Source: an uncultured Acidimicrobiia bacterium (GTDB lineage Bacteria; Acidobacteriota; Terriglobia; Versatilivoradales; Versatilivoraceae). From it: a stretch of 64,000 nucleotides of DNA. The notes beneath the pieces are model-generated. The model made no database searches. It saw only the letters and a program-made list of their open reading frames with translations, and was not told the origin of the DNA. This document shows, one piece after another, positions 18,738-54,975 of this stretch (positions are counted from its first letter, which is position 1; each line of letters begins with the position of its first letter). Both the position numbers and the translations under genes were made by a program. The stretch lies in the NCBI GenBank assembly GCA_963786955.1, contig CAWBAT010000005.1, positions 640,001-704,000 on the forward strand. Reading direction: 5' to 3'.

Positions 18738-18749
18738 CAGAGCTAATCC

Positions 18750-20912: not shown

Positions 20913-22079
20913 ATGAGAGTAGCTGCTGCCATACTGATTGGCCTGTTGGGGACGCTTTCGTCCCTGGGACAAACACCTCAGAAGGTGAAGCTTTCTGATT
21001 TCAAGCTCGCTTCGAGTTGCCAGCCCTGCCACGAGGAGATTTATGCTCAGTGGCAAACCTCGACCCATTCCAAGGCATTTGTCGATCCTTTATACCAAGC
21101 AGTTGTCCGTAAAGCCGTCGAGGAAAGCAAAGGGGGCTTAACCCAATTTTGTGTTTCCTGCCACGCACCCCTGGCGACCGTCACCAGTTCCATTCCACCC
21201 GATCTGTTTCAGAAAGAGCAGATAGACCCACGGATTGAGAACGGGGTAACCTGCGAGTTCTGCCACACGATCTCTGGTAACAGAAGTGAACCTTAACAAA
21301 CTCAGTCTCGGGGCTTTCCTTTTCCCAAGAGCTATCCAAACGAAAATTCTTTACGGACGGCATGCGGATGCTACCAACGATGCGCATCCGACCCAACCCT
21401 CGCCGTTTCTTGTTGTCCCGGAATTATGCGGGACCTGCCATCGATTTGGACACCCCGTTTCAGGGATGCCGGTTCAAGACACCTATCAGGAATGGAAGCA
21501 AAGTCCCTATGCCGCAAAAGGGACCCGATGTCAGGATTGCCATATGCCCTCGTATCAGGGGAAAGTGTCTGAGTCAGGCAAAGAACGTTCTGAAATTCAT
21601 GCCCACATTTTTAGGGGCGGACACACGGAAATGATACGACAGGCGGCCATCGTCAATATCACGGCTAATCGAGACTACATCGAACCCCTAGATGCGTCGG
21701 TGGTAGTCACTAATGTCGGAGCCGGCCATATGATCCCGACCGGACTCCCTGCTGTCCGTGAGATGTGGTTAGAGGTTACAGTCCAGAGCCAAGGGAAAAT
21801 CTTGAGTACTCAAAAGAGGGTTTTCGGCCTGGAAGTTCTCAATGCGGAAGGGAAGCCGGCTTTGCCGTGGGAAGCCACGAAGCTCGGGAAAGACACCCGG
21901 ATTGCCCCTAAGAAATCCCGTTTAGAGAAGTTTCGATTCGAGGTTTCCGGTTCGGAAAACATTCGCATTGAAGCCAAGCTCCAGGAACAATTATTGTCCG
22001 ACCAGGCCGCCAAATTTGCTGGCATTCCGCCCACTCCGCCTCAATCGATGGCAGAAACATCGATCTCCTGCCTCAATGA
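20913..22079 (+). CDS. Periplasmic pentaheme c-type cytochrome, paralog of 1748-2863 (frameshifts near 21285 and 22070)
   Basis: CQPCH, CVSCH, CEFCH, CGTCH, CQDCH; 'GAGHMIPTG', 'DTRIAP'. Confidence 0.85.
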
Positions 22080-23005
22080 GTTCAGCTCCGGGTACCGAGG
22101 AGAATTTCCCTCTCCAACAGTTCGCGATGCGGCTTTCTTTGGCCGTGGGCTTTTTCATGCTCGTGACCAAAACCTTCGCCTACTGGCTGACTGGGTCGGC
22201 CGCAATCCTCTCTGATGCTGCAGAATCCGTCGTCCATGTCGTTGCCGTTTCCTTTGCGGCTTACAGTCTTGGCTCAGTGTCAAACCGGCGGACCGCAGCC
22301 ATCTGTACGGACATGATAAGATCAGTTTCTTCTCGGCGGGGTTTGAAGGGGCGATGATCATCATCGCCGCTTTCTATATCATCTATGTTTCAATTGAAAA
22401 ATGGATTTCAGGGCTGAGGCTGGAGCACCTTGGCACGGGAACGGGCCTGACCTTATCTGGCCTCTGATCAACGGCGGCTTAGGTCTTTATCTGGTCACCA
22501 TTGGGAAGAAGAAACCACTCTCTAATTCTTGAGGCCAACGGGAAACATGTCCTCACGGATTGCTGGACAAGTCTGGGCGTTGTCGTCGGCCTGTTCCTGG
22601 CCATGATCACGGGCTGGTTGGTTCTGGATCCGATTATCGCGATCCTGGTAGCTTTAAATATCCTGTGGACCGGCGGTCAATTAATCCGCCGATCCATCGG
22701 TGGTTTAATGGATGAGGTGGATCCGGAAACAGAGGCAAGAATCAAGAGCATGCTTGACCCGATTACCAAACCCAAGGCATCGAATACCATAGTCTGCGAC
22801 ACCGGAACACGGGAAGTACGCTCTGGATCGAACTGCATATGCTTTTCCCCAAAGGGATCCTGCTGGAAAACGCTCACGCGATCGCCACCCAGATTGAAAA
22901 CCGTTTAAAGACAACCTTCCCACTAAGACCGAAGTAACCACCCATTTGGAAACCCTCGAAGACCATGCGGATATTCATACCGACCGGCACGACCAAGGAA
23001 CGTGA
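22076..23005 (+). CDS. Cation diffusion facilitator (CDF) transporter (several frameshifts)
   Basis: 'AILSDAAESVVH', 'HLYGHDK', 'ANGKHVLTD', 'LDPIIAILVA'; C-terminal 'THLETLEDH'. Confidence 0.85.
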
Positions 23006-23250
23006 GCACGAAATCGGAAGGTTAAGATGAGCGGTAAGAGAGTGACCTTTTAAAGTCACAGGATCTGCACCTCCATCTCCCCACTCGATACGATGACCCG
23101 TAAAAATCGGATGACTCACGAATTGTCCAGCTGGAATTACAGATAAGTCCAATCATGTCCGAGACCTCCTCCTTGATCTTCAGACCGTCCATTTGTGCAT
23201 CGACTATCATTTTGTGATCGTTTCATTTTACGAATGGCACTTCGCAGAAC

Positions 23251-23896
23251 ATGTCCTTCTCGAAAGAGCGCCCACAATCGCTGGGAGAGGAAATCGCAAA
23301 CAGCATAAGCCACGGAGTTGGCCTGCTGGCAGCAACTCTCGCGATCCCAGTGCTCGTGATTGGGGCTATCCGACGAGGAGGCATTGGCACCTTGATCGGC
23401 GCGAGTGTCTTCGGGGTCACCATGTTGCTACTGTACTCAGCCTCCACCCTTTACCACGCGTTGGCCCGTAACCGTGCCAAACGCGTGTTTCAGGTCCTCG
23501 ACCACAGCGCGATTTACTCTATTAATCGCCGGCACCTACACTCCATTTGCTCTCGGTGTGCTCCGGGGTGCTTGGGGGTAGACGCTGCTCGTTCTGGTTT
23601 GGAGCCTGGCACTTACAGGTGTCATGTTGAAAGCTACGGGTAACATGCGGCATCCGATCTATTCGACCTCCCTTTACCTGGGATGGGCTGGCTTGTCATT
23701 GTCGCGTTCAAGCCCCTCTACATCCATGTGCCAGCATGGGGTCTGTTCTGGCTCTTGGCAGGTGGCATTGGATACACAGCGGGGATTGGATTTTTCGCGG
23801 CCGCGACGGCTTCGCTATAGCCACTTCATTTGGCACCTTTTCGTCATGGCAGGTACAGCCTGTCATTTCATCGCAGTCTTGCGGTTTGCATTCTGA
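23251..23896 (+). CDS. Hemolysin III / PAQR family membrane protein (frameshifts and one in-frame TAG near 23579; possibly a pseudogene)
   Basis: 'EEIANSISHG', 'STLYH', 'LDHSAIY', 'HFIWHLFV...CHF'. Confidence 0.8.
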
Positions 23897-24299
23897 CAGC
23901 AGAGAGCATTTGCGGGCTTGGAAAAATCAAATCACTGTACTGAAGTCAGATTTGAAAGAACCGACCAACCCCTTTCTAATCCCCTCCAAAGGGCGGAGTG
24001 TCGAGAGCTTCTGGCAAAGGATAAATCCGGCCAAGGAGACAATTCCCAGCTTTCACCCCCTCTCTCATATCGCTTTTGTCTTGAAAAAGACTCCTTCCTT
24101 GCGTATTCTTTGGCATGCCAATGGCTTTTGCAGTCTCCGCGCAGGCCACGAGGGACCCCGAGGGGATGTCCCTTCTTGAAATTGTCACTCCCCGCTCGAA
24201 ATTTGCTTATCTTCTTGAAGAGTTCAGTCGTTTCGGGAAAATCGGACTCCAGGTGATTCCATTTTGAGTCGTCAAAGTCCACTCTCAAAACCTGACAAC

Positions 24300-26732
24300 A
24301 TGGATCCTAATCTGGTCTTTGTACGTGTTGAAGGTGATGTTTTGTCTCTGCGCCCATTCCGCATACTGGCTCACTATGCGCGGAATGCTCAGGCCTTTAC
24401 AGAGCGGGCCTTCCGACTCCCTGCCGTCGACTCTCATGACTCTCCTGCGGCCGGCCTTATCCGTTGAAAATCCTGTTCTGGGGACTCGACTGCTCTATCT
24501 GCCACTTCGCGGAATGAGCCGCGACAGACTCGATCTTCTGGGCGAAGAATATTTCAACTATGTTTTGTCTTCCCGATTAAGAAAGGAAGGGATTCGCCAT
24601 ATCGAAGAATTGCACGCGATGGGCAAAGAAGATCGTATTCGTGAGCGATCAATTGGATCATCTCATCCGACCTCTGGCACTCCACCTTAAAGCCCATTTT
24701 CTCGCTACGAATCGCCTCGAATTTCGGGATGATCTGGCAACAGGGAGGCTTCTTGAACCTGTCATCCCCGCTTTGGGGGTCACCGCCGGTTTAACCTCGA
24801 CGGAACGGAAAGAGTCCACCGGCTGGAAGGCCTTCGAAAAGGAGGTGGGGCCCCAAGAATTCTCGACGGTGAATCCTCTTTCGATTCTCCCCGTGCACCG
24901 CCGAATCCGGGCGATCCATCATCCTATGGTCCAGTTCGCAAGACGGGATTCCACACTGAAGCCGTTGTCGGTCCGTGGAAGTTTATCCGGCAAAAAGATT
25001 CTTTTAATCGGCTGCACCGGATTCATCGGGAAGGTATGGCTGACCATGCTGCTGAAGGATTTACCCGAAATCGGCCGCGTCTTCTTGCTGATCCGGCGTC
25101 ATGGAAAACGGTCGGCACTGCAACGATTTGAAAAAATTGTTGCACGAGTCTCCGACCTTCAAACCCTTTCATGAATCCTATGGCAATCAGCTGGGTGAGT
25201 TTCTCGCTGAACGGATTGAGGTTATCGAGGGAGACGTTTCAGAGCCCCACCTAGGCCTTAACCCACAAACCGCTCGGCGCCTGTATGGCGAGCTCGATCT
25301 CATTGTCAATTCAGCAGGTTTGACAGATTTCAATCCGGACCTCCGGCTGGCCCTTTCGACCAATGCGGACAGCGTGTTGCACCTGATCGAGTTTCTCAAC
25401 AATTCGCAGAAGGCAGGGCTAGTCCATATTTCCACGTGTTTTGTTAACGGTCGCACCGACGGCCGGGTCCCTGAAGAATTGCGGCGCAATTACACACCGA
25501 AAGGCAGAGTTGAATTTGACGCCATCTCAGAATGGAAGTTTCTGCACCAGGAAATCAAACGGGTCGAAGAAGAATCTGAAAGCCCTTCACTCAACGAACA
25601 ATTCCGAACCCAGGTGGTTTCCCGTTGGAAGGATGGGGAAGAAGCAGGTCCCGGACAGAAAGGTATTCAGAACCGGATCCGCAATTTGCGGACTCGCTGG
25701 GTGCGTGATCAGTTGATCGAAATGGGAGTGCAACGAGCTCAATATTGGGGATGGCCTAACATCTATACCTTTACCAAGAGCCTTGGAGAATCCCTCCTGG
25801 AAAACAAAGGAGCCAGGCTCCCCTTCAGTATCGCACGGCCCTCCATAGTGGAATCCTCGGTTTTTCAGCCGTTTCGAGGCTGGAATGAGGGAGTGAATAC
25901 GACAGCCCCGCTTTCCTATCTGCTCGGCACCTATTTTCGTCAGCTTCCGTCCAACAAGCGAAAGCGGCTCGATGTCATACCGGTCGACTTGGTCTGCAGA
26001 GGGATAACCCTGATTGCCGCCGCGCTAGTGCAACGAGGTCATGAAAAAGTTTATCAGCTTGCAACCTCTGCGACGAACCCGGCGAACATGCGACGGACGA
26101 TTGAGTTGACCGCGTTAGCCCATCGTAAGCATTATCGTTCTTTGGAGGGGCTAGAACATTGGCTTCGGGCCCGGTTCGACGCGATTGCCGTTTCGAAAAC
26201 CCGCTACAAATACGTGTCCCTGCCAAGATTAAAAGGATTGCTACAAAGCGCTGAGAGCGTCCTTTCGCTCTTGCCATTCAAAGGGGACACTCTGGTGCGA
26301 AAGCAAAGGGCCCTGGACCGAGTGCAAAAAGTCATCGGACTTTACGAGCCTTTCATCTTGGATAATGACTACTTCTTTGCCGCCGATCATATCAAGGCGC
26401 TGGCCGAGTCGCTGCCGGATGAGGAGGCTCAAACGTTTGGTTACGATGTCTCTTCGATCGATTGGTATGACTACTGGATCGATCTCCATGTCCCGGCCTT
26501 GAGACGATGGACTTATCCTTTAATCGAAGGGCGTCGCCCGGAAACAGGCTTGTTACCGCGAAATTTCAAGCTCCCGGTAAAAGAAGAAGGTCATACTTCC
26601 GAGCTTTCGGAATCACTCGACCCAGCCTCAGCTAAGCCAGCAACTTCTTTGCTTCCATCCGAAAATTTGGGCAATGCTGCCGGGGCACCGGCAGGAGATA
26701 ATTTTCAGGTGGCTGACCAGGATGGTAATTGA
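24300..26732 (+). CDS. Fusion of a degenerate HAD-like domain with a fatty acyl-CoA/ACP reductase (male-sterility/NAD_binding_4 type); 3 frameshifts
   Basis: N-terminal HAD-IB-like fold ('NRLEFRDDLATGRLLEPV'); Rossmann 'LLIGCTGFIGKV'; 'HISTCFV'; catalytic 'WPNIYTFTKSLGE'; 'RPSIVES'; 'DVIPVD'; C-terminal 'IDWYDYW...HVPALRR'. Confidence 0.8.
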
Positions 26733-26740
26733 GCATAACT

Positions 26741-27878
26741 ATGGCTACTTTTGTTACAGGCTCAACAGGATATCTTGGGGCCCATGTTGCTTCGGAGCTG
26801 CTCTCAAAACATAACTCTAAGTTAAGCCTCCTGGTGCGAGCCAAAGATCACCGGGGGGCTGAGTTGAAACTTTGGAAGGCCATGCAATTACACCTCGGAT
26901 TTTCCGAGTTTGTCCATTGGCTAGAAACAAACATCGAAATCTTTCTTGGCGACATTACTCTCCCCCGCTTTCGGGTTAGATGAAGAACAGTACGTCCAGC
27001 TGCTCAAGAAGACTGATTCGGTCCTTCATATCGCGGCATCGCTAAATCGTCGCTCCGAGAAATCCTGCCTGAACGTAAATCTTCGCGGCACGCTGGAAGT
27101 GCTTCAGTTCGCCCGGAGAGTTAGTTCCTATCATGGCCTTCGGCGTTTCAGCCACGTGAGCACAGTCGCCGTCGCGGGAGCACGAAGCAACGAAGTTGTC
27201 AAAGAGGACGAATCCATTGATTGGAACCGGTCGGATTTTGACCCGTATGCGAGAACCAAGAAGTTCAGCGAGCTGATGATTCGGGAATTGCTTCCTGATA
27301 TCCCCTTGACCATCTTCCGTCCTAGCATTGTTTTGGGGGATAGCCGCTATGGCGCGACAACCCAATTCGACATGGTGGAGGCATTCGTCTTCTTAGCGAA
27401 ATTAGGGTTGCTTCCACTGCGACCTCACGATCGTTTGGACATCGTGAACGTCGATTTTGTCGCCAATTCCATTGTCTCTCTCCATCAAAAGGAGAAAACC
27501 TTATACGATACCTACCATTTATCTTCTGGCGTTCATTCCCCTACCTGCCGGCAGATTACTGAGGCGCTCAGCGCCGCTCGACAGAGGAAGGGGCCCTTCT
27601 ACCTGCCATCTCTCGCAAATCCTTTTAAGGGAATCGTGAACTGGATGGCAAATCGTCGTGGAACTTCTGTGGGGCACCTGGGATCATTACTCAAGGTTTT
27701 CTTACCTTATCTCTTATGGAACACCGTATTCGACAATCAACGAGCGGTTCAAGAAGTCGGCCAGCATCCTGTACCTTTTCCTGAGTACTGCTACCCTTTG
27801 TACAATTTCTCGGTCAAGCACAATTTTGCTTATCCTTACCAGGACTGGCCGGCGCTTGAAGGGAGTTCCACCGCATGA
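26741..27878 (+). CDS. Extended SDR / thioester-reductase-like NAD(P)-dependent oxidoreductase (frameshift near 26965)
   Basis: '[10 protein letters not shown]', 'VNLRGT', 'HVSTVAVAG', 'YARTK' (YxxxK), '[10 protein letters not shown]'. Confidence 0.85.
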
Positions 27879-29284
27879 TGGATCCATTGCTGGAGCTTTG
27901 GGTTGCGGGACTGGTAGAGCTGGCAAAGACCCGATGGATCCTGGGCTTCGGTCAGGCTTGGACCCCAGGCTCTCCTCTCCGACTCCTCTTTGCAGGATAC
28001 AATGGAAACCGTAACACCGGCGCCGATGTCCGGGTCGAGGAAATGATCCGTCAAATTCGCCGAGTTCTGGGGGATGAGCATATTGACCTCAGTGTTCTCT
28101 CGCATAACCTAGAACTTTCGAAAGGTTATTTCCCCACCGTCCAACAGGTTAAGCTTCCGGATGTGTTTCCGCCCTTCTTATTTCGAGAAATACCCCGCTA
28201 TCACGGCGTCATCACCTGTGAGGGATCGATGTTTAAGAGCAAGTTTGCCAATGCCCTAACGACGATGATGATCGGGGCCCTGGGCATTGCCACGGCCGAA
28301 AATAAAGTCTCGATCGGGTACGGCGCAGAAGCCGGATCGATGGATCGCCTGCTGCAGAGCATGTGTCGCCGCTATTGCGCCAGTTCGCTGGTTGTGACAC
28401 GCAACGAAGAGTCTCAAAAAGTGTTGGGAGATTTAGGAATCCAAACGGAATTGGGAACGGATACGGCGTGGACATTTGAACCGCACGGGTTAGATTATGG
28501 GAGAAAAGTTTTACTCGATGCCGGCTGGGACGGTCGTACCCCCATCTTGGGTTTGTGTCCGATCAATCCTTTCTGGTGGCCGGTAAAACCATCAATTCTG
28601 AAACTGCTGATGAATAAGTCGGCAGGCTTTTATCGGGATAGCCATTATCGCTCGATTTATTTCCATAACGATGGAAAAGAAGTCAACGCAGCCTTCTTCC
28701 GTTATCTTGAAGCATTCGTCGCTGGGATCCAAGAGTTTCGAAAAGAGCACGCCGTCTTCCCCGTATTGATCGGGATGGAGGCATTAGATCGCCGTGCTTG
28801 CGAAATCATGGGACAGAAGCTTGATCGAGTCCCTCTATTCATTTCAGATCAATATGACATGTACCAATTGGTCAGTATTCTGCGCAATTGCCACCTTTTG
28901 CTCTCTTCCCGTTATCACGGTATCGTGACATGCATGCCCACACTGGTTGCATCAGCCGGAGTGACCATGGATGAGCGTATTCGCAACCTCATGCGTGAAA
29001 GAGGTCACACGGATCTGTTACTGGAGGTAGATGATCCGGACCTTTCATCAAAACTGGTGATCGTGTTGCGAAGACTCATCAAGAATTCTGAAGAAATCCG
29101 ACAGGGGATTGGAAAAACCGTGGTCAGGAATCTGAAGATGATGTCGAGGATGGGTATTTATCTTCAGCAAAACGTCCAAGAACGATATCCGGAATTCCCC
29201 GTCCGGACAGGACACTATTCCTGGGAAGACTATCTGCCATCCTTGAGCCCAACTCTGCAGAAACTGATAGAAGAGTTTGAGTAA
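27875..29284 (+). CDS. Polysaccharide pyruvyl transferase family protein (GT-B-like)
   Basis: '[11 protein letters not shown]', 'VVTRNEES', 'GTDTAW', 'SSRYHG' match the family's G-x-N-x-G-D, R-(D/N)-x-x-S and R-x-H motifs. ATGA overlap with the upstream SDR. Confidence 0.75.
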
Positions 29285-29381
29285 AGAACTGGCGTGAGCT
29301 GTAGCTGCGGTCCTCGAGCATCAGATAACTGACAAAGTCATGGGATCCGGCAGCCATAAACTGTCGCCTCCGTCGGTTTAT

Positions 29382-29595
29382 CCCGAATTCCGAAGTTGGG
29401 CGAGGGGGATTTCTATCTATTTACTGATTTACATGAGACTTGCAAGACGCTCAGGAAAGGGAAAATGTATACTGATGGCCTGCGGATTCAGGTGGAACGC
29501 GCGCTCCGCCGCGCGTTCATTGAGCGTGCCCGGGGGGACAGCGGTCCCACGCGCACGCTCCACCTTGCGACGCTCACGCACTTTCGGAATTCGAG
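29382..29595. mobile_element. 214-bp MITE with 5-bp target duplication, carrying a REP-like doublet
   Basis: TTTAT direct repeats at 29377-29381 and 29596-29600; TIRs CCCGAATTCCGAA / TTCGGAATTCGAG; internal GGTGGAACGCGCG...CGCGCGTTC ... GCACGCTCCACC. Confidence 0.75.
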
Positions 29596-29649
29596 TTTAT
29601 CCGAGCTTGAAAGGAACGATTAAAGATTGCAACAGGCAAAGACGCAGCG

Positions 29650-31353
29650 ATGAATTTCTTAGAGACTATTTTCGAGAACCTGTCCAGCGCTCCACAGAAG
29701 CCAATCTTGCAGGAAATACGCCGAGGCCACCTCGTTTCGTGCACGGGTGAAGAGTTGCTGGGCTACATTCAGCAGGCTCGCTACGCCTTGAGGGAAGCCG
29801 GATTACACGCAGGCGACCGATGTGCATTATTGGCACCCAATAGCATTCAGTGGGTTGCCGTTGATCTGGCCATCATGGCGGAGGGAGGAATCGTTGTTCC
29901 TCTCTATTCGAGGCAGTCCCCTTCCGAACTGGTTCAGATGATGAAAGATTCTTCTCCGCGTTTCCTTTGTTGCGCGAACGTGGAACTGCGAGACGCCATC
30001 TCTGCAGTCTGGGCCGAGGTCCCTGCCACTCTCTTGTTTGAAAAAATTTTCTCAACCGTTCTTTCCCCCTCCACTCCGGATCTAAAGAAAGACTCAACTG
30101 CTGAGACAAAATACCTGGCTGGCTTGACTGATTCGTCATGGGTAACGATCATCTATACTTCGGGAACTTCGGGAGATTCGAAGGGAGTTGTTCTGACGGC
30201 AGGAAACATCACGTTCATGCTGCAGCGCACCACGGGGCGACTTGTTGAACTCATGCAAAACGTCAAGAAGAGTAGTGATGACCGGGTCTTTCATTACCTT
30301 CCTTTCTGTTTTGCAGGATCCTGGATTCTTTTACTCTCAAACCTCTACCGAAACAACGCTCTGATCCTTTCCACGGATCTCAACAAGCTGACTGAAGAAC
30401 TTCAGATCGCCCAACCCCACTATTTTTTAAATGTTCCTGCGCTGTTAGAACGGATACGCAACGGCATACAAGATCAGCTTCGCAAGAGAGGGAAAGTGGT
30501 CCACCGTTTATTTGCGAGAGCACAAAAGGCCTGGCTCGCTCAGAACCACGGCGAGGCTGGAATCGTAGATTCGCTCGGACTCTCACTCACACGGTTCCTG
30601 ATTTTTCCCAAAATCAAACAAACGATCAGCCCAAACCTTCGAGCACTAATCTGTGGCTCTGCTTCCCTCTCTGAAGAGACTCAACTCTTTTTCCAGATGA
30701 TCGGTATTCCTGTTTTACAGGTTTATGGGCTCACAGAAACCACGGGAATCTGTACGATGGACGATGTTCATGAAGTCAGCGCAGGGCGAGTCGGCCCCGC
30801 CATTCCCGGGATTGAAATGAAGCTGGGCGCAAATGATGAGATTCTCGTACGGGGTCCCAACGTGTTTCCCGGCTATTGGAACCGACCTGAAGCAACCGCC
30901 GAAGTGATCAAAGATGGATGGTTTCATACAGGGGATCAGGGTGAGGTTGATGGGAACGGAAATTGGAAGATTGTTGGACGATTGAAAAATTTGATCATTC
31001 CGACTTCAGGTCACAATGTCAGCCCGGAACCTCTTGAACAAAAACTGCTCAGCTTCCTCCCGGAGGCCGAATATGCGATGGTCTGCGGGAACGGCCGGAA
31101 GTTTCTTTTGGCCATCATCAGTGGGAATGCAACGAGGGAAAGAGTTGAGGTAGCCCTTCAAGCCCTCAATCAAGAATTGCCGCATTACAAGCAAGTTCGG
31201 AAATTCTACCTGACCCCAGAACCTTTTAGCGCCGAAAACGGACTGTTGACCACGAACCGAAAGATCAAACGCGCAGCCATCGAATCACTCTACAGGAGCG
31301 CCATCGAAGAGCTATACCGGGATCCGGCAACACAGGTTAAGGACCGGCCCTAA
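29650..31353 (+). CDS. Long-chain fatty acid-CoA/ACP ligase (AMP-binding)
   Basis: 'IIYTSGTSGDSKG', 'YGLTET', 'GWFHTGDQG', 'GRLKNLI'. Confidence 0.92.
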   Translation: MNFLETIFENLSSAPQKPILQEIRRGHLVSCTGEELLGYIQQARYALREAGLHAGDRCALLAPNSIQWVAVDLAIMAEGGIVVPLYSRQSPSELVQMMKDSSPRFLCCANVELRDAISAVWAEVPATLLFEKIFSTVLSPSTPDLKKDSTAETKYLAGLTDSSWVTIIYTSGTSGDSKGVVLTAGNITFMLQRTTGRLVELMQNVKKSSDDRVFHYLPFCFAGSWILLLSNLYRNNALILSTDLNKLTEELQIAQPHYFLNVPALLERIRNGIQDQLRKRGKVVHRLFARAQKAWLAQNHGEAGIVDSLGLSLTRFLIFPKIKQTISPNLRALICGSASLSEETQLFFQMIGIPVLQVYGLTETTGICTMDDVHEVSAGRVGPAIPGIEMKLGANDEILVRGPNVFPGYWNRPEATAEVIKDGWFHTGDQGEVDGNGNWKIVGRLKNLIIPTSGHNVSPEPLEQKLLSFLPEAEYAMVCGNGRKFLLAIISGNATRERVEVALQALNQELPHYKQVRKFYLTPEPFSAENGLLTTNRKIKRAAIESLYRSAIEELYRDPATQVKDRP

Positions 31354-31358
31354 AGCCC

Positions 31359-32039
31359 ATGATTCCATTGCCCCTAGCCAGAAGACTTGTTCGAGCATTG
31401 ATGACCTGGGTGGTTTTGATGGCACTGATGCTTTCAGCCTGGGGATGGAATCGGCTCGCCGGATTCGGGGCGGAATGGCCAAGACTCCTCTTGCCTTTTG
31501 TATGGCTCATTTTCTCACTTTACGGAGCGTGGAGGGACACGCAAACCAGCAGTTCGGAGGGGAAGAATGAGGTGCGCAACCACCGGCGAATGCTCCTGTT
31601 TTTTCTACCGGTCTTTGTCTTGTGGTTTTTCTACCTTCCTTATTCGGATCAAAGAGATGGCCCCGCCTTTTCTTCCACTCCCTTACGCTGGGTTGGGCTG
31701 GTTTTTTTTGCAATCGCTCTGTTGCTCCGGATTGAAGCAATCCGAGCGCAAGGCAAGCAATTCAGTTATGCTGTGACGATTCAAGACGGCCACCAACTGG
31801 CACTTCAAGGCCCGTACCGATGGATCCGTCACCCGGCTTACCTGGGAGTTATCGGGATGTTTTGCGGACTCTCTTGGGTATTCGCAAGATTTGAGCTGGG
31901 GCTCCTGATGGCACTTTTGGTATGGTTGTGGATGGAATCGCGCATCCGGGATGAAGAGAAATTGTTGCTTGAGGAATTTGGAAGAGATTACGCTCATTAT
32001 CGCCAGAAAACGGCAAAGCTTGTACCCTTTGTCTACTGA
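31359..32039 (+). CDS. ICMT/PEMT-family membrane methyltransferase
   Basis: Multiple TM helices; 'GPYRWIRHPAYLG', 'RIRDEEKLL..FG.DY..Y'. Confidence 0.88.
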   Translation: MIPLPLARRLVRALMTWVVLMALMLSAWGWNRLAGFGAEWPRLLLPFVWLIFSLYGAWRDTQTSSSEGKNEVRNHRRMLLFFLPVFVLWFFYLPYSDQRDGPAFSSTPLRWVGLVFFAIALLLRIEAIRAQGKQFSYAVTIQDGHQLALQGPYRWIRHPAYLGVIGMFCGLSWVFARFELGLLMALLVWLWMESRIRDEEKLLLEEFGRDYAHYRQKTAKLVPFVY

Positions 32040-32140
32040 CGGGTAGTAGAATTCCTAGGACTAAGCATTTCGAGAAAGTCGGGTCAGGATTTTGCCCCAA
32101 CAGGCGTCAACAAAAATCTTGGGATAGAAATCACACTCAT

Positions 32141-32942
32141 ATGGATTCTTTCAAAGGCAATGCAATCTCATGGGGTTTGACAGAAGGCGTCGTGGAACTG
32201 GTCCTTCATCGCGAACCTTGTAATGAAATAGGCTCGGTGACACTGGCCGAGTTGGAACGTTTTGCCGATGCCCTCGAGAATTCTGGTCAGAAGCCCAGGC
32301 CCTGATTCTCTATAGCCGACTGGCTTCAGGGTTTTGCGCCGGAGCAGACTTGCGTGAGCTTTTCCGAGGAATTCAGCCGCTGAAAGCCGAGGATCGTTCA
32401 AACCGCGTGCGCGATTTTCTACTGCGGATTCATCGTGTTTTTAATGTGATCGACAGTGCGCCGATCACGACGATCGCGGCGGTTCACGGAGTGGTTTTTG
32501 GAGGCGGATTCGAGCTGGCCTTAACCTGCGATATGATCGTGGCAGACCGGACAGGCCGTTTTTGCTTCCCGGAGTTGCGATTGGGTCTCGTACCCGGATT
32601 TGGGGGGATTCCCCGAATGAAGCGGGATATTGGTAACGGCTTGGTGAGGGATCTTCTGCTGACGGGCCGGAGCATTAACGCGAATAAGGCATCCGCCGCA
32701 GGTTTGGTCAGTCAGGTCGTTGCTCCAGGAGAAGCCTTTCGGGTCGCGCGATCCGTCGCTTTGCAAGCAACCAAATTCGATCGCCGGGCAGCCCAAGTCG
32801 CTAAGGAATTCATCAAGCCGATTCCATACGCAGAGTTGCAGGAAGAAATCCGACTCTTTTGTGAACTGATGGGTCGGCCGGCCGTCGAAGAGGCATTCGC
32901 AAGTTTATTGAAAGCACTGACGCACAACCGTATCTCCCATAA
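32141..32942 (+). CDS. Enoyl-CoA hydratase/isomerase family protein (frameshifts near 32300 and 32900)
   Basis: Hand translation MDSFKGNAISW...HREPCNEIG; 'FCAGADL', 'GGGFELAL', 'FPELRLGLVPGFGG'. Confidence 0.85.
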
Positions 32943-32975
32943 ATATCGAAAATATTACAAGGATCGATTCCCTTT

Positions 32976-33219
32976 ATGCCTCATCTCGAGCAAACCCTTG
33001 CATGATTTGTTAAAGTTGGCCTCCGAGCATTTCCAGGTCCCCGTCAGCGAACTCAACCCCGACGAAGATTTTTTCAAGAAACTCAAGATCAATAGTCTCC
33101 AAGCCCTAGACCTATTGACCAAATTAGAACACCACTTTAACGTGGAACTCCCTGACTATGAATTGCAGGGCGTAACAGATTTCAGAACCCTGGCGGAAAA
33201 AATCCAAGCGCGACTGTGA
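32976..33219 (+). CDS. Acyl carrier protein
   Basis: ~80 aa, acidic, Ppant-site motif 'LKINSLQALDL..LE..F.VELPD'. The apparent fusion to the hydratase in the ORF track comes from frameshifts. Confidence 0.8.
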
Positions 33220-34942
33220 AACACACGGCCCCCGATTTATCTCCGTTCGCTTCTCTGGGCGAGGCCCTGCACATGGCTGCGCAGAAGTGGGACCACCACT
33301 TGGCTCTCATTGAAGCCGACCGTGAGCGCGAGAACTGCCGCCTGACCTACTCCCAATTTGAACAAGCCGCCCTTCCTATTGTTCAGGCCCTTCAAGAAGC
33401 CGGATTTGAATCCGAGCATCGAGCAGCGATAATCATGTCCAATCAGTCCAAATGGTTGATTGCCGCCTATAGCCTTTTTTATGCTGGGGGCGTGCTGGTC
33501 CCCCTGGATTTCAAGTTGACACCTGCGGAACATTTGCAACTTCTGGCCCACGCCTCGGTAAGGTATTGATCGTGGAATTTCCTTTCTGGCTGGCAATAAC
33601 TCAGACTCCGGCCTATAAGGAATTCGCCCTGTCCCCTAGTCCTCGTGACCGAGGCCCCCAAGACTGTGAAATTAGTGGGTGCACAGCGTTGGGAAGAGCG
33701 CACTCTTGCCGGAGCAAAGCCCCGCTTCGTACCAAGAACACGGCAAGACCTGGCCGGTATCGTCTACTCCTCGGGTACGGGTGGGCAACCCAAAGGATGC
33801 ATGTTGACTCACGACAATTATTTGGAGCAGTGCCAGTCATTGATGACCTGGTATCCGTTTTGGCCCGGAGTTCGTTATCTCAGCATCCTTCCAACAAACC
33901 ATGCCATTGATTTCATGGTCGGATTTCTTGGACCTTTTTTTTGCGGAGCCACGGTTGTTCATCTCCGAACATTACGTCCCGAGTATCTCAAGGAGGCATT
34001 CCCACGCTATCGAATCACTTACGCCAGTGTTGTCCCCATGGTGTTAAAAGCCTTCGAATCGGGTTTGAAGAACAAGTTCAAAGAATTCCCACCAAGCCGG
34101 CAATGGGTTCTCAGTTGTCTGATGCGCATCAACCGATGGTTAACGCGTAACCGCCCACGACCGTGGATCAGCCGGCGGTTACTGCCCAATATTCATCAAG
34201 CCTTCGGCGGTGAACTGTTAGCCCTGATTACTGGGGGCGCCTTCGCAGAGCCTTCGACTTTGCAGTTTTTTTATGATCTCGGCATTCCCGTCGCCAACGG
34301 ATACGGGTTGACGGAGGCCGGAACTGCTGTCACTGTCAACGATTTGAAACCCTTTCGAGCGGACACGGTGGGAAAGCCGTTGCCCGGGAGTTGAATTGAA
34401 GATTCTCGATGCGGATGCAGATGGGGTCGGACAAGTTGCGGTGCGAAGCAAGACTGTCATGAGAGGCTACTTGAATGATCCTGAAATGACTGCTGAAGTG
34501 CTTGTCAAGGGGTGGTTGTTGACCGGCGACCTCGGACGAGTGGATGCAACCGGCCATCTCCTGCTGTTTGGGCGTTTGAAGAATATGATTGTGACCGAAG
34601 GGAGGGAAAAACATATACCCCGAGGATATTGAGTCTGCGTTTCAAGGCTTACCCGTTAAAGAGTTTTGCGTCTTTGCGGTCAATTATGTCTGGAAAAAAC
34701 AGACCTTGGTCGGAGAACAGCTGATGCTCGTCGTTCAACTGGAACCAGGAGATGAGCTAACTCCAGCCTTGATCGAGGAGCTGCAGACTCGCAACCTTCG
34801 GCTGGCAGATTTCAAGCGGGTTTCAGGCTATCTTCTTTATGACGAAGATTTCCCGCGTACCGCTTCCCTGAAAATTAAGCGCAGGATTCTGGCTGAACGG
34901 ATAGCCACAAAGCTGAACCGGACTGATGTGAGAACGCTATGA
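33216..34942 (+). CDS. Second long-chain acyl-CoA/ACP ligase (AMP-binding; ~4 frameshifts)
   Basis: '[13 protein letters not shown]', 'GYGLTEAGT', 'GWLLTGDLG', 'GRLKNMIVT', '[11 protein letters not shown]'; GTGA overlap with the ACP. Confidence 0.85.
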
Positions 34943-34955
34943 TAATTCGTGCGTT

Positions 34956-35855
34956 ATGAAACGTTACCTGGCTATCGTGAACCCTGCCGCCGGAGGAGGA
35001 CGCTGCGGCAAGCTGGCATCCGAGACACTCGGGACAAATACGTGCGGGCGGGGTGGCGGTTGAAGTAGCTGGGACCCAACGCGCCGGAGATGCGACCGCC
35101 TTGGCAAGGGAAGGCTACGAACGGGGCTTCCGTCACTTCCTTGCCGTGGGAGGAGACGGGACAAGCTTCGAGATCGTGAACGGGTTGTTCCCGCGCGAGA
35201 ACCAGACGGACAGGGTCGCGTTGGGATTTCTCCCCTTGGGGACCGGAAATTCCTTTCTCCGCGACTTCGCCGAAGCGGGTTTACCACACGCTATAGAGGC
35301 CATAATCAAGCAAAAAATAGACCGTGCGATGTCCTTTGTCTCAAACACGGGGGAGGCCAATTGCATTACATCAATCTTGTGAGCTTCGGATTCACGGCTG
35401 AGGCAGGCACTTTGACAAACAGCCGGTTCAAGCCGTTGGGGGAGGTTGGCTACTTATTGGCCACTTTAATCTGCTGGATGAAACTCCATTACCCTACCTT
35501 TCCACTGCGCGTGGATGATGCCTCGGAGATTGATCACCGGCCTTGCACCTATTTAACCTTTTCAAATAGCCGCTATACCGGGGGGAAATTCATGATTGCT
35601 CCCTTCGCAAACACGGCAGACGGGTTGATTGAGCTGACACGAGTCGGAACCTTAAAGCGATTAGATTTTGCTCGGACTTTTCCCAAAATATTTTCCGGAA
35701 CTCACATGAGTCATCCGCTGATCTCACATGTGGGCGCCCACCGGGTCGATTTCCAAATTTCGCAGCCGATCGATGTCATGATTGACGGTGAAGTGGTGGC
35801 TTGCTTACCGGAGTCTATTGTCGTCTTGCCGCAAGCTCTCGATGTGATGGTATGA
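34956..35855 (+). CDS. Diacylglycerol/sphingosine kinase family lipid kinase (YegS/DgkB-like; 2 frameshifts)
   Basis: 'IVNPAAGGG', 'VGGDGT..EIVNG', 'LPLGTGNSF', 'IDGE'. Confidence 0.88.
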
Positions 35856-36649
35856 AGCAATTTTATCTGATCATCCGCAGTGTTTTTCTCTGGATTCTCA
35901 GTGCCATTCATTTTTTTACTGTTTGTACCGGCTTGGTCATTCTGGGTATTTTCTTCGACCCTCGCACCAATGATTGGCCTCAACGATGGTTCTTTCGGAA
36001 TATCCTCCGCGTGGCTGGCGTGGGATTTCAAGTGAAGCGCTCACCCGGTTTCGACCCTCAACGCACGAGCATTTTTGTTTGCAACCACATTAATATTTTT
36101 GACGCATTCGTAATCTATTCGGCGATTCCGCAATTCGTTCGAGGTCTAGAACTGGAGTCTCACTTCAAGATCCCGGCCTATGGATGGATGATGAAACGAT
36201 TTGGGAATATACCTGTAACGAAAGCTGGAGGGCCCTCACAATTCAAGAAAACTCTGGAACACGTTAGGTCTCATATTGCGAACGGCATCAGCGTCATTAT
36301 CTTTGCCGAAGGAACAAGAACACGGGATGGACGGGTTGGCCCGTTCCAGAAAGGTGGCTTTGTTATGGCCCACCACATTGGCGCGCCGATCGTTCCCATG
36401 AGCATCTGTGGGTCATTTGAATTCAACCGCAAGGGCAGCTGGATGCTACACCCCTCCACAATCAACGTCTATCTGCACGACACGATCGAGACAACAGGGA
36501 TCAAGAAAGAAGAATTAAACGAATTGGTAAAAGAGGTTCACCGAATTGTCTCTGAACCGGTCGATGCCTCTTTGAAAGTCCAGTCCGGCGCCCATCGATC
36601 AAACAAAGAGAACACGACAGGGGGACACAACTACAACTTAAGCGCTTGA
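35852..36649 (+). CDS. Lysophospholipid acyltransferase (PlsC-like)
   Basis: 'NHINIFD' (HX4D) and 'FAEGTRT'; ATGA overlap with the kinase. Confidence 0.92.
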   Translation: MKQFYLIIRSVFLWILSAIHFFTVCTGLVILGIFFDPRTNDWPQRWFFRNILRVAGVGFQVKRSPGFDPQRTSIFVCNHINIFDAFVIYSAIPQFVRGLELESHFKIPAYGWMMKRFGNIPVTKAGGPSQFKKTLEHVRSHIANGISVIIFAEGTRTRDGRVGPFQKGGFVMAHHIGAPIVPMSICGSFEFNRKGSWMLHPSTINVYLHDTIETTGIKKEELNELVKEVHRIVSEPVDASLKVQSGAHRSNKENTTGGHNYNLSA

Positions 36650-37070: not shown

Positions 37071-38261
37071 TCAGAAAAGAATCTTGATCACCCGCGTGAC
37101 CAACTCCTCAAGCGAAAAGACCGTCAGAGCCAACGGCAGAAGAGGCGCGGCGGTCACGGCGGCGAGTCTTGCGATGTCCTTAAGTCCGAAGGGCACGAGG
37201 CGCATCTCTTCAACAATCGAATAACTGTTTCCGAGATCGGCCAGCGACTGAATGTCGCCAGTGCCCAGAAGTTCATCGCCTTGTGCCGCGTTCCCCCGAA
37301 CCCACTTGTCCTCAAATCCCTGGACGTAGCGGTTAGCGAGCAGTCCGTATGCGTCCAATCCCCTCTGTTTCGCCCGCGCGAGCTGCGGCGTAAACATGAC
37401 GAGTGGGCCGAGAAGGAACAGAACGAAGAAACCCACCAAGCTCACGGCTTCCATCTTGAAGGACAGCAAGCTCTCACCCTCGTACAGGATCCGACTGGCG
37501 ATCATACCCGCCAGCAACAGGCCTTGGGCGAAAAGGATCGGTCCGAAGGCGTAGGTGCTCTTACCCAGGAAGGCTAGTCCGCCGGCTCGGTCCGGGTGGG
37601 TGGAGATGAGGCACAAGTTCAGCCTCGAGACCTGCCACAGGAACCGAAACCAGATAAGGAGCCGCAGATACCAGCGGAGCAAGATGAACTGAAAAATTGG
37701 AATACTGACGAAGGCATACCAGTACCCGGCAGGCGTGAGATGCAAATGGGTGCCTTGCGGCATCGCATACCAGGTTGCTGCACCGATGGCAATCTGGCTC
37801 CGCCAGAGCCATTGCCCGACCGTCCAGACTAGAATCACCAGCGCCACTTCCATGGGGGCCGAGTTGCGCACACGCTCGGCCGAGTGAATGGCGGCGTGGA
37901 ATTTCGGCAGATCTTCGGAGACGACAATGTCCCGCTCCACGAACCGTGACACCACGGGGCGGACGCGCAAATGGACGATCAGCTCGGCGGCAATCAGCAC
38001 CGGTAACGCGACCAGGAATCGAACCTGCACCTCGATGTCGTGTAAAAATGGGACCTTGATGGCTCCGCCCAGCGCATGCCCGCCAATCAGCGACAATACC
38101 AATAGCGGGAGCCACGCGAAAAGCGAGATAAACAGAATTCGGCGGTGGAGCAACTCCAGTGCGTCTCCGGACACATGTGTCCGCCGGAACAGTTGATACA
38201 GAGGACCGCCCAAGCATAGCGAAAAGTCAGGCGATTCTTGGAGAGGCGTGGTTTTGTTCAT
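37071..38261 (-). CDS. Hypothetical integral membrane protein
   Basis: 396-aa ORF with ~8 hydrophobic segments and high-GC codon usage like the adjacent sulfatases. Confidence 0.75.
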   Translation of the reverse strand: MNKTTPLQESPDFSLCLGGPLYQLFRRTHVSGDALELLHRRILFISLFAWLPLLVLSLIGGHALGGAIKVPFLHDIEVQVRFLVALPVLIAAELIVHLRVRPVVSRFVERDIVVSEDLPKFHAAIHSAERVRNSAPMEVALVILVWTVGQWLWRSQIAIGAATWYAMPQGTHLHLTPAGYWYAFVSIPIFQFILLRWYLRLLIWFRFLWQVSRLNLCLISTHPDRAGGLAFLGKSTYAFGPILFAQGLLLAGMIASRILYEGESLLSFKMEAVSLVGFFVLFLLGPLVMFTPQLARAKQRGLDAYGLLANRYVQGFEDKWVRGNAAQGDELLGTGDIQSLADLGNSYSIVEEMRLVPFGLKDIARLAAVTAAPLLPLALTVFSLEELVTRVIKILF

Positions 38262-38523
38262 GGTGCAGGATCCTTAGAACTCAAGCCCCGGCCGCAGCAG
38301 GGTGCCTTGCGCGGTGGTCTTCCCAGATAAAAATCATGTCATTCTTTGCTTGCTGAGCGGTACTGGTGTCCCAACACCCCACTGGCGGGCGGCCAACTTC
38401 AGCGCCAGTCCAGAGACCAGCGCGGCGGCGAGGTTGGTTTTCGTTTTCATGGTCGTGTCCTTTCTTTGTTTATCGGTTGCCGCGCCCGCCGCCTTGCGAC
38501 GGCGGGCGCAGTTCTTATTACAC

Positions 38524-40935
38524 TTACTGTGCGGCGGCGATGGTGGCTTTGCCTTCTTCAAGTTTCTGCTGGTCCTGCGCCGTCAATGGCACGGGTTTCA
38601 AGTAAACCGTCACCTTCTTGAGCTCGCCGGTGAACTTGAACGGGACGTGGTAATCCTCGGTGACGGGTGTGCCGGTGTCCTCGCCGCAATCGAGCGTCTC
38701 GTCGAGCGAGAGGCGGAAGGCCAGTGTACGTTCGATGCGGCCGGTGGCCACGGTCTTGCCGTCCACCTGGATCGTGCCGACGCCGCCTTTGCCGAGGCCA
38801 CCGCCATCGTATTTGAAGTCGTAAACGATGGTGTGCGCGCCTGGCGCAAGCTTGTCCTTACCGGTGACAAGGTAGTGGGCGACACCGGCGAGGTTGTAGC
38901 AGAAGACCGGCTTGCCTTTGAGCAGGTAAAGTCCCCACCCGGAGAAACGTCCACCATGCGTGAGCAACATGCCTTCCGCGCCGCCCTTGGGGATGTCCAC
39001 CTCGGCTTTGATCTGCCAGGACTTGTTCTTCGTGTCCGGCGCTGCGCCCTCGGGGATGCGCACGAGGCCGGGGTAGTAGGTGAACTCGTCCCGCCCGCGC
39101 GTCAGGCTGGGCCGGATGTTCACATCGAAGCGGTTAATCCTGCTGTTCTCGATCGGCAGCACATTGTATTTCTCGGCTTCCTTCCAGAAGAGGTCCTGCA
39201 GCTCCTTGAGCTTGGCGGGCTCTTTGGTCGCGAGGTTGTTCGCTTCGGAGAAATCCTCGCTGACGTTGTAGAGTTCCCACTTGTAGTCAAGGACGGAAGG
39301 CAATCGCCCTTCGATCTCGGCCGCCGAGTCCCACGGCGCAACCCCCGGCGTCGTGCAGGCGACCCAGCCATCGTGATAGATGCCCTGGTTGCCAAACATC
39401 TCGAAATACTGCGTCGTGTGTTTCGACGGCGCTTTTGCGTCATCGAACGTATAAACGAGGCTCGCGCCTTCAATGGGTTTCTGCGCCACACCGTTGATGC
39501 TCGTCGGCGCGGGCACACCGGCGGCTTCGAGCAACGTGGGCATGATGTCAATCACCGAGCAGAACTGCGAACGGATGCCGCCCACGTCCTTGATGCGCGC
39601 CGGCCAGGAGATGACCATGCCGTTGCGCGTGCCGCCGAAGTGCGAGGCGATCTGCTTGCACCATTGGAACGGCGTGTCCATCGCGTGCGCCCAACCGACC
39701 GGGTAGTGGTTGAAGGTGTTCGGCCCGCCGAGTTCGTTCATGCGGCGCAGGACTTCCTTCATGTCTTCGGGGATGCCGTTGAACACCGTCATCTCGTTGA
39801 GCAGGCCTTGCATACCGCCTTCGCCGCTCGCGCCGTTATCGCCCTGGATGTAGATGACGAGCGTGTTGTCCAGTTCACCCTGCGCTTCGATGGTATCGAG
39901 GATGCGGCCCATCTCGGTGTCGGCGTGTGAGAGCGCCGCGGCATAGACTTCCATCATGTGGGCAAAAACTTTCTTCTGGTCGGCGTTCAAGCTGTCCCAC
40001 GCAGGAATGCCAGCGGAACGCTCCGTCAACTTCGTATTCGCCGGGATGATGCCCGCCGCCTTCTGCCGCGCGAAAGTTTCCTCCCGCACCTTGTCCCAGC
40101 CTTGATCGAACTTTCCCTTGAACTTCGCGATCCAATCCGGCGGTGCGTGATGCGGCGCATGGGCCGTGCCCGTCGCGTAGTAGGCGAGGAAGGGCTTGCC
40201 CGGCGCGGTCGCGTGCTGCATCCGAATCCAGTCAATGCAATGGTCGGCCATGTCATTGTCGAAGAAGTAATTCTTCGCGTCATGCGGCGGCTCGATGGGT
40301 TTCGTGCCCTCGAAGAGCGCCGGATTCCACTGACTCGTGTCGCCGCCGATGAAGCCGTAGAAGTATTCAAACCCCAGCCCGGTGGGCCACAGGTCGAACG
40401 GCCCCGCCTGGCTGGTCATCCAGTCGGGGACGTTGTGGTTCTTGCCATACCAGGACGTGTTGTAGCCGTTCTGCTTCAGAATCTCGGCGAACGTCCCGTC
40501 GCTCTTCGACATCAGGGAGTTGTAGCCGGGGAAGCCAGTGGCCAGTTCCATGATGACGCCGGTGTTGGCGCTGTGATGATTGCGTCCGCTGAGCAGTGCG
40601 GCGCGCGTGGGCGAGCAAAGCGCCGTGGTGTGGAATTGATTGTAGCGAAGTCCGTTTTTGGCCAGGCGATCCATCGTCGGCGTGGGAATCGGCCCGCCAA
40701 ACGTGGATGACGCCCCGAAGCCCACATCATCGGTGAGGATGACGAGAATGTTCGGCGCGCCTTTCGGTGCTGCGACACCCTTGGGGAAATCCGGCGTGGA
40801 CTCCTTGGGCGTGCGGCCAATCTTGCCGCCGAAGGGTTGTTCGGGTCGGGGCAGGACTTGTTGCGCCCTTGCCGGTAGCGCATAGGCTGTGGCCAGCACA
40901 AGGATCAGAACGGCGAGCATGGTTTTGGTTTTCAT
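38524..40935 (-). CDS. Arylsulfatase (Cys-type, secreted)
   Basis: Signal peptide; '[12 protein letters not shown]'; FGly motif '[12 protein letters not shown]'; 'GKNH'; 'GDNG'. Confidence 0.95.
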
Positions 40936-54966: not shown

Positions 54967-54975
54967 TATAGCCCT

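Follow-up and report, generated by a model that had tools for sequence, protein, structure and literature searches.

A Ten-Gene Lipid Operon in an Acidobacterial Contig

We analyzed a stretch of 64,000 nucleotides (the window) from an uncultured Acidimicrobiia bacterium, which GTDB places in the Acidobacteriota (Terriglobia; Versatilivoradales; Versatilivoraceae). The window comprises positions 640,001 to 704,000 of contig CAWBAT010000005.1 (assembly GCA_963786955.1). Stop-to-stop open reading frames (ORFs) and Pfam matches show that ten co-oriented genes on the plus strand, numbered g1 to g10 here, fill positions 24300-36649. Nine of them make up this genome's version of an operon conserved across the Acidobacteriota; the remaining one is a methyltransferase gene specific to the lineage.

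The first gene (g1, 24300-26732), aligned by tblastn with the g1 protein of the orthologous locus L003, encodes a degenerate HAD-IB-like domain fused to a fatty acyl reductase (FAR) of the alcohol-forming type with NAD_binding_4 and Sterile domains (Pfam). The second gene (g2, 26741-27878) had been labeled an extended short-chain dehydrogenase/reductase (SDR); according to Pfam (NAD_binding_4) and NCBIfam its product is rather a stand-alone SDR of the thioester reductase (TR) type. It is followed by g3 (27875-29284), whose product has a GT-B fold and is a distant relative of the polysaccharide pyruvyl transferases (PS_pyruv_trans, PF04230), and by g4 (29650-31353) for acyl-activating enzyme 1 (ligase 1; AMP-binding and AMP-binding_C_3). 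A membrane methyltransferase of the ICMT/PEMT family (Pfam) is encoded by g5 (31359-32039) and a crotonase-fold enoyl-thioester hydratase (ECH; ECH_1 domain) by g6 (32141-32942, true stop codon TAA at 32940-32942). The acyl carrier protein (ACP; PP-binding) gene g7 (32975-33219) starts with the ATG at 32975, and the start of g8 (33216-34942), which encodes acyl-activating enzyme 2 (ligase 2; AMP-binding), overlaps its stop codon. The last two genes code for a lipid kinase of the YegS/Rv2252/BmrU type (g9, 34956-35855; DAGK_cat and YegS_C, in two frames) and a PlsC-type acyltransferase with an HX4D motif (g10, 35852-36649; Acyltransferase, PF01553).

This order of domains was already given in the original prediction, made from the sequence alone, and is borne out by the Pfam analysis of 17 reading-frame pieces of the operon, 13 of which gave matches. 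The three overlaps of start and stop codons that it listed are likewise present, each 4 nt long: ATGA at the g2/g3 junction (27875-27878), GTGA at g7/g8 (33216-33219) and ATGA at g9/g10 (35852-35855). Ligase 2 is translationally coupled to the ACP. An Rfam scan revealed no RNA element within the operon, and promoter- and terminator-like sites in it are no more frequent than background.

No ketosynthase was found by Pfam among the operon genes of the window. The Pfam analysis of the window's operon and of L003 also showed no aminotransferase-class domain and thus no serine palmitoyltransferase, no WS/DGAT protein (the sole acyltransferase is of the PlsC type, PF01553) and no flavoenzyme of the alkylglycerone-phosphate synthase (AGPS) type. 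The earlier claim that ketosynthase, serine palmitoyltransferase and wax synthase are missing therefore holds for the window's cluster; it does not extend to some Blastocatellia versions of the operon, which carry a ketosynthase gene (see below).

Conservation of the Gene Order

A genome scan identified at least 594 matching genomes, and synteny was counted in the best 80 loci. Of these, 76 are labeled Acidobacteriota (40 Terriglobia, nine Blastocatellia and 27 without a class), and the two loci with odd labels that entered the FAR tree fall within groups of acidobacterial sequences there. The order g1-g2-g3 is kept in all 65 loci with enough upstream DNA. Downstream of g3, where 51 loci could be compared, ligase 1 and ECH are present in all 51, the ACP and ligase 2 in 48 each, the kinase gene in 47 and the PlsC gene in 43. 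The complete set of six occurs in this order in 43 of the 51 loci. The arrangement is thus kept elsewhere, and more often than by chance. The eight exceptions are three loci without the ACP-to-PlsC half adjoining the ECH gene (L009, L048, L057), three in which the cluster is expanded by insertions (L018, L022, L047) and two without a PlsC gene inside the locus (L069, L075). The ACP itself was detected in 59/80 loci, with 70-87% identity among the matches shown.

The ICMT gene was found in one of the 80 loci only, L001, and the conserved unit therefore consists of nine genes. The methyltransferase that had been predicted as an operon component is indeed present in the window, but it is specific to this lineage. 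Conserved flanking genes were not found in the 80 loci beyond near relatives; thus, the unit runs from g1 to g10. The conserved unit looks like a combination of two modules, one made up of g1-g4 and ECH and the other of ACP, ligase 2, kinase and PlsC.

In five scanned loci of the Blastocatellia type, Pfam identified a gene for a FabH-type β-ketoacyl-ACP synthase III (KAS III) between the ECH and ACP genes (L018 14791-15795, L022 16703-17704, L047 14174-15172, L055 15269-16270 and L060 14110-15141). An ORF of like size lies at the same position in L057 (14176-15165), a locus outside the Pfam scan. Two Acidiferrales loci have a gene for an S9 protein (prolyl-oligopeptidase) between ECH and ACP (L023 8451-10559, L064 13912-15981).

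Catalytic Motifs of the Operon Proteins

The FAR part of g1 shows conserved YxxxK and GxxGxxG motifs in 67 orthologues, and the YxxxK motif of g2 is conserved in 60. Both catalytic Glu positions of g6, assigned by alignment to the canonical ECH of the window and by reference to rat ECH, are conserved across the orthologues. The same is true for the GGDGT motif of the kinase and the HX4D motif of PlsC. FAR, TR-type SDR, ECH, kinase and PlsC thus keep intact catalytic motifs.

The HAD part is different. Pfam found no match to it in the window's own fragments, and the domain was recognized via the intact g1 orthologue of L003 (PF12710, E 1.1e-11). Read against the DxDxT motif, the nucleophile position of motif I is Arg in 62/67 orthologues and the next Asp is Glu in 61/67. 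With HAD-IB proteins of solved structure, an alignment is obtained for residues ~97-177 only and stops before the last motifs; the region of motifs III/IV cannot be aligned. An Atlas search with the HAD-like part gave only sub-threshold leads (0.84), to HAD-IB families and to the HAD-like domain of plant GPAT. The domain is unlikely to act as a phosphatase.

None of the operon proteins reached an NCBIfam equivalog or subfamily cut-off, except for a generic lipid-kinase subfamily: the g9 orthologue of L003 scores 130.9 bits against TIGR00147 (subfamily cut-off 118.65). The g2 protein scores 146.8 bits against TIGR01746, which is below the cut-off of 213, the best model for g4 is FadD11-like, and every match of g5 is below its cut-off.

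Frameshifts in the Window's Copy

Nine intact orthologues of L003 were aligned to the window with tblastn and the frames were read along the alignments. Six of the ten operon genes have interrupted reading frames, and the shifts number at least 13: three in g1, one in g2, two in g6, one in g7, about four in g8 and two in g9; g3, g4, g5 and g10 are intact. The frames of g1 run 3, 1, 2 and 3, the single shift of g2 is located near 26955, that of g7 about 20 nt past its ATG, and the two shifts in g9 compensate each other. Because of the frameshifts ECH and ACP are apparently fused in one frame, while the ECH stop and the ACP start are found in other frames. Short homopolymers are located at or beside the shifts, and stop codons in the aligned genes are confined to the shifted segments. 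Both observations favor a long-read consensus error, and the frameshifts are most likely assembly errors. In the closest locus, L001, which comes from another metagenome-assembled genome (MAG), ligase 2 is also split into two ORFs (15259-17347), which fits frame errors that are common in such assemblies.

Alternatively, the operon copy in this genome might be a decaying pseudogene cluster, which would be independent of the function of the pathway. We regard decay as unlikely. In its favor, frameshifts affect six of ten genes, and the breaks seem to be clustered at 22-36.6 kb (22215-36649) and not spread over the window. The two genes directly upstream of the operon also match their profiles only in part: a cation-efflux fragment (22483-22908) covers profile positions 128-198 of 198 and an HlyIII fragment (23218-23643) covers 4-86 of 224 positions. 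By contrast, most of the ORFs sampled in other parts of the window (1-12 kb and 44-64 kb) look whole. Decay is, however, at odds with the restriction of stop codons to shifted segments, with the position of the shifts at homopolymers and with the 50-70% amino-acid identity that the broken genes keep to their orthologues; together with the split ligase 2 of L001, these features form the pattern expected from long-read consensus errors.

Relationship to the Elb System

When the window's FAR was used to look for longer proteins, 342 matches were obtained. A large majority of the 120 listed are proteins of ~1470 amino acids with the ElbD architecture (NAD_binding_4, Sterile, AMP-binding, PP-binding and Acyltransferase) and 33-38% identity; 11 are named Pyrinomonadaceae. 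Six ElbD-like proteins were compared with the operon proteins domain by domain (BLASTP). The FAR of g1 is 36-40% identical to them (E 1e-101 to 1e-110), ligase 2 matches their acyl-CoA synthetase domain moderately, with 28-30% (E 1e-64 to 1e-73), and better than ligase 1, which matches the same domain with 26-28% (E 1e-36 to 1e-44). PlsC shows a similarity at the family level only (22-31%, E 1e-4 to 1e-10), and the ACP gave no BLASTP match to the six proteins at E ≤ 1e-3.

For a FAR tree, 22 g1 FARs and 17 ElbD-like FARs were hand-picked from 67 and 120 sequences, respectively, and combined with the FAR-g3 fusion protein P0242, which was left ungrouped, and four g2 sequences as outgroup; the rows do not include Myxococcus. 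The g1 FARs and the ElbD-like FARs form sister clades (SH-aLRT 97 and 83), and both groups together form a clade of 39 rows against the outgroup (SH-aLRT 97). Blastocatellia occur in both clades. This topology points to a paralogous sister system and not to a recent fission of ElbD. The operon would encode a reductive lipid pathway of dissociated type, sister to the Elb ether-lipid system of myxobacteria and acidobacterial subdivision 4 (SD4) and not a fragment of it.

The operon had originally been described as a split ElbD. The relationship of FAR and ligase 2 agrees with this description; the position of the FAR as a sister not nested within the ElbD-like clade, the family-level similarity of PlsC and the unmatched ACP do not. 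That the ElbD activities are encoded by separate genes was found to be correct: they reside in g1, g8 (or g4), g7 and g10, and this applies to all loci examined. The HAD and SDR genes cannot be counted as additions to Elb, since the Myxococcus elb operon has HAD-IB and NAD-epimerase genes too. In the available text of PMC9131029, elbA and elbE are NAD-epimerase genes, elbB is a HAD gene and elbC is described as unknown. In the transcriptome supplement (file 9) of PMC11980068, MXAN_1530 carries the annotation HAD-IB, MXAN_1529 lactate racemase/DUF2088, MXAN_1528 AMP-binding and MXAN_1527 NAD epimerase. MXAN_1528 is elbD, and we infer from its position adjoining elbD that MXAN_1529 is elbC. By Pfam, neither the window's cluster nor L003 contains a DUF2088/lactate racemase domain.

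An Atlas cluster of 52 look-alike members, which is commonest in Myxococcota, had prompted us to consider g3 as the counterpart of ElbC. This candidate was rejected because in Myxococcus the gene that separates elbD from the HAD gene carries a DUF2088 annotation.

Taken literally, a split ElbD would be an unfused orthologous form of Elb that makes the same 1-O-alkyl glycerolipids with the same Elb chemistry, with the extra genes as accessories. All functions found in elbB-elbE (HAD-IB, FAR, acyl-CoA synthetase, ACP, acyltransferase and NAD-SDR) are present in the operon, its FAR is the closest relative of the ElbD-type FARs, and elbD variants split between the reductase and A domains are reported in the accessible part of a sponge preprint (10.64898/2026.06.23.733905). 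The sister clades with Blastocatellia in both, the lack of specific similarity of PlsC and ACP and the missing counterpart of the DUF2088 gene adjoining elbD nevertheless make such an orthologous form quite improbable. In addition, g3, ligase 1, ECH and the kinase are conserved as strongly as the shared genes, and the HAD-like domain has no nucleophile.

The Pyruvyl-Transferase-Like Protein g3

The g3 protein scores 35.2 bits against PF04230 (Pfam cut-off 25.3). Its NCBIfam scores are far below the cut-offs, with 52 bits against 213 for CsaB and 18-19 bits against 399/727 for WcaK. Among 8,000 scored candidate relatives 7,903 pass; the best 120 are 64-89% identical to g3, barring the window's own sequence (100%), and those of them with a taxon name belong to Acidobacteria, Terriglobia or Blastocatellia. 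The subfamily is small, with 292 representatives at E ≤ 1e-30 in 1.84 billion. In an AF2 model (pLDDT 81.8) the protein adopts a GT-B fold; all its Foldseek matches are generic GT-B proteins with a TM-score of about 0.5, the nearest being glycosyltransferases and UDP-sugar epimerases. Searches of the PDB with two profiles gave no hits (profile A1) and chance-level matches (profile A2, E ≥ 0.5; 5ax7 E 1.2), and naming g3 from its structure was given up on account of these results. Across 24 relatives down to 25% identity ten positions are invariant, among them R346 and H348; this Arg-x-His pair presumably resembles the motif with which Pvg1p binds phosphoenolpyruvate (PEP).

Relatives of g3 also occur as parts of fusion proteins. 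P0242 joins FAR and g3 (43% identical to g3, five member sequences), P0241 (1348 aa) consists of a ligase with a PilZ domain, an ACP and g3 (52% identical to g3), P0295 is a fusion of g3 with a ligase that contains AMP-binding_C_3 (ligase-1-type), and P0243 is a g2-g3 fusion. A further fusion, P0251 (Sterile-g3), is perhaps an incomplete protein of the P0242 type. The FAR-g3 and ligase-ACP-g3 fusions depart from the order of the operon genes. These natural fusions tie g3 to lipid activation and reduction.

The PilZ domain of P0241 is inserted into the adenylation domain (residues 376-469), which hints at a control of a related pathway by c-di-GMP.

Proposed Pathway and Product

The operon encodes a pair of acyl-activating enzymes, a single carrier protein, an alcohol-forming-type and a TR-type reductase, a competent hydratase, a lipid kinase, PlsC and a GT-B enzyme linked to lipids. 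We tentatively propose that it encodes an Elb-related pathway leading to a phosphorylated, acylated membrane lipid derived from a fatty alcohol, a reading that we consider quite possible if a little short of probable. We infer every chemical step of the route that follows, as well as the ether nature of the product. Ligase 1 would make acyl-CoA, which the FAR of g1 would reduce to the fatty alcohol. This alcohol would be linked by g3 to a small polar unit, for which a C3 enolpyruvyl unit from PEP, joined by an ether bond, is our preferred guess. The resulting acid would be loaded on the ACP by ligase 2, its activated double bond would be hydrated by the hydratase, and reductive release by the TR-type SDR g2 would give an O-alkyl glycerol-like alcohol. 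Phosphorylation by the YegS-type kinase and acylation by PlsC would then yield an alkyl-acyl phospholipid precursor, and in this lineage the ICMT-type enzyme may methylate a phosphate or carboxyl group.

The appeal of this route is that it assigns a single task to every conserved gene and that the fusions found connect steps that follow each other. The specific PEP and enol-ether steps, in which g3 itself would form the ether bond by transferring enolpyruvyl from PEP onto the FAR-made fatty alcohol, are quite improbable and should be taken as a speculative proposal. If they were correct, the C3 unit would become the glycerol backbone through ligase 2/ACP, hydratase and thioester reductase, and the backbone would originate from PEP and not from glycerol phosphate. 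This would be an oxygen-tolerant bacterial route to alkyl glycerol ethers, independent of Ger, PlsA and AGPS and present across the Acidobacteriota, the long-suspected source of the palaeoclimate markers known as brGDGTs (glycerol dialkyl glycerol tetraethers of the branched type).

Several points weigh against the proposed route. The evidence for PEP use by g3 is thin and its link to pyruvyl transferases is weak (35 bits in Pfam, equivalog cut-offs missed by far, no significant sequence match in the PDB, only generic GT-B folds in Foldseek), which leaves room for g3 to transfer a glycosyl or some other group. The g2-g3 and g3-ligase fusions follow the order of the operon and could be products of read-through or assembly artifacts. 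An sn-2-type ether is predicted by the route, whereas the ethers reported so far from Acidobacteria are 1-O-alkyl. The operon-bearing loci include MAGs labeled Terriglobales, and ether lipids have rarely been reported from cultured Terriglobales. Finally, the route does not explain the KAS III gene of the Blastocatellia.

Hydratase and KAS III are better accounted for by a second explanation, in which the product is a sphingolipid-like diol phospholipid that contains no glycerol. Here, a 3-hydroxyacyl thioester would be formed by the hydratase or, in Blastocatellia, by KAS III and reduction; reductive release would give an alkane-1,3-diol, which the DAGK-family kinase would phosphorylate at C1 and PlsC would acylate. 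The g3 protein would add or cap the head group, for instance as a pyruvate ketal across the diol. The hydratase retains both catalytic Glu residues, the combination of ligase, ACP and TR resembles a dissociated carboxylic-acid-reductase module (partial carboxyl_red matches), and the KAS III found in 5/5 scanned Blastocatellia-type loci could converge on the same 3-hydroxyacyl thioester. DAGK-family kinases include sphingosine and ceramide kinases, and pyruvyl transferases usually ketalize diols. The diol explanation accounts less well for FAR and g3: the second, alcohol-forming FAR and ligase 1 are left without an obvious role, and the FAR-g3 fusion P0242 suggests that g3 works on the FAR product. 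We know of no report of 1,3-diol lipids from Acidobacteria, although no search for one was made, and we rate a diol product as distinctly unlikely.

If g3 is a glycosyl- or pyruvyl-transferase that decorates the FAR alcohol, the product could also be a fatty-alcohol-derived envelope glycolipid or wax-like compound, and kinase and PlsC would act on a separate glycerolipid. The GT-B fold of g3, with glycosyltransferases and UDP-sugar epimerases as nearest structures, and the FAR-g3 fusions are compatible with this. Pfam analysis of the window and L003 showed no gene for a nucleotide-sugar enzyme, a wax synthase or a transporter in the conserved unit, though, and ECH, ACP, ligase 2 and TR would have no role, which makes a glycolipid or wax very improbable.

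Other Genes in the Window

Several multihaem c-type cytochrome genes are located at 1748-4201 on the minus strand and at 12165-21296 on the plus strand; MtrC/MtrF-like domains and a NapC/NirT-type protein are among their products, which suggests extracellular or metal-linked electron transfer. Downstream of the operon, the region 38000-44500 is a G+C-rich block (0.60 versus about 0.50 elsewhere) whose minus strand carries a HAD-like ORF besides two genes for sulfatases, and it may be acquired DNA. A tRNA-Sec gene (46741-46833, minus strand; Rfam RF01852, 68.7 bits) lies directly upstream of an ORF of the aldehyde-dehydrogenase family (44995-46731, minus strand). The NADH dehydrogenase (nuo) set at 53484-61674 is interrupted after nuoA by a DHH-family gene and is followed by a gene for an RHS-repeat protein (61857-63407).

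Comparison With Known Systems

The available text of PMC13159169 names acidobacterial ether-lipid producers as an exception without Ger and reports elb for SD4 only, and S. usitatus has no ElbD according to the accessible part of PMC10087280. As far as the available text of these two papers goes, mss homologues are absent from selected acidobacterial genomes and Tes homologues are found in 3/14 (PMC13159169; PMC10087280). The accessible part of the sponge preprint states that cblaster finds elb-like clusters in Acidobacteriota and describes a split elbD variant (10.64898/2026.06.23.733905). A description of the operon was not found in the literature searched, and no NCBIfam equivalog matches; the earlier suggestion of an undescribed pathway is thus supported, with the reservation that the cblaster figures of the preprint may already show the operon.

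An Elb-related operon with conserved gene order in Terriglobia and Blastocatellia is a concrete, testable candidate for the way in which aerobic Acidobacteria synthesize ether-bound lipids, including the precursors of the brGDGTs that serve as proxies of soil temperature and pH, and so is its highly conserved enzyme g3. Should the product turn out to be something other than an ether lipid, the operon would still define a membrane-lipid pathway that spans the phylum and is undescribed in the literature searched.

The bacterial ceramide pathway of Caulobacter comprises Spt, ACP, ACP-synthetase, CerR, bCerS and CerK. The operon resembles it in its clustered ACP, a ligase similar to acyl-ACP synthetases, an epimerase-type SDR and a lipid kinase of the DAGK family, but it contains neither serine palmitoyltransferase nor ceramide synthase (Pfam, window and L003). 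With the peroxisomal and myxobacterial AGPS route (FAR1, GNPAT, AGPS and acyl/alkyl-dihydroxyacetone phosphate reductase) it shares a FAR, an acyltransferase of the PlsC/GNPAT-like kind and an SDR to which the reduction of a carbonyl intermediate might fall. That route has no equivalents of the operon's kinase, ACP, hydratase and GT-B enzyme, and by Pfam the operon in turn lacks the AGPS-type flavoenzyme. Ligase 2, ACP and TR-type SDR make up the three parts of an A-T-R module as known from carboxylic acid reductases and from reductive release modules resembling non-ribosomal peptide synthetases, which the partial carboxyl_red matches support; here, however, they are three separate proteins, and the operon also encodes an enoyl-thioester hydratase.

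When g3 is compared with CsaB, WcaK and Pvg1p (PF04230), it scores above the Pfam gathering threshold, has a two-Rossmann fold of the GT-B type and keeps an invariant Arg-x-His pair that presumably resembles the Pvg1p motif. In contrast to polysaccharide pyruvyl transferases, it is encoded in a lipid operon without polysaccharide genes and is elsewhere fused to FAR, ligase or ACP; this context argues against a polysaccharide as the probable acceptor.

Elb of Myxococcus xanthus (elbA-E), to which the homologues in Acidobacteria SD4/SD6 and Poribacteria also belong, has in common with the operon a HAD-IB-like domain, an alcohol-forming-type FAR with Sterile domain, an acyl-activating enzyme, an ACP, an acyltransferase of the PlsC type and an NAD-dependent SDR. 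The available text of PMC9131029 gives the chemistry between fatty acid and ether lipid in Elb as unknown, and the same is true for the operon described here. ElbD combines FAR, acyl-CoA synthetase, ACP and AGPAT in one polypeptide, whereas here these are encoded by separate genes and it is the HAD domain, with its nucleophile lost, that is fused to the FAR. Compared with Elb the operon lacks a DUF2088/LarA-like gene and has four more conserved genes, which encode g3, the additional ligase, the hydratase and the YegS-type kinase, and it occurs in Terriglobia besides Blastocatellia.

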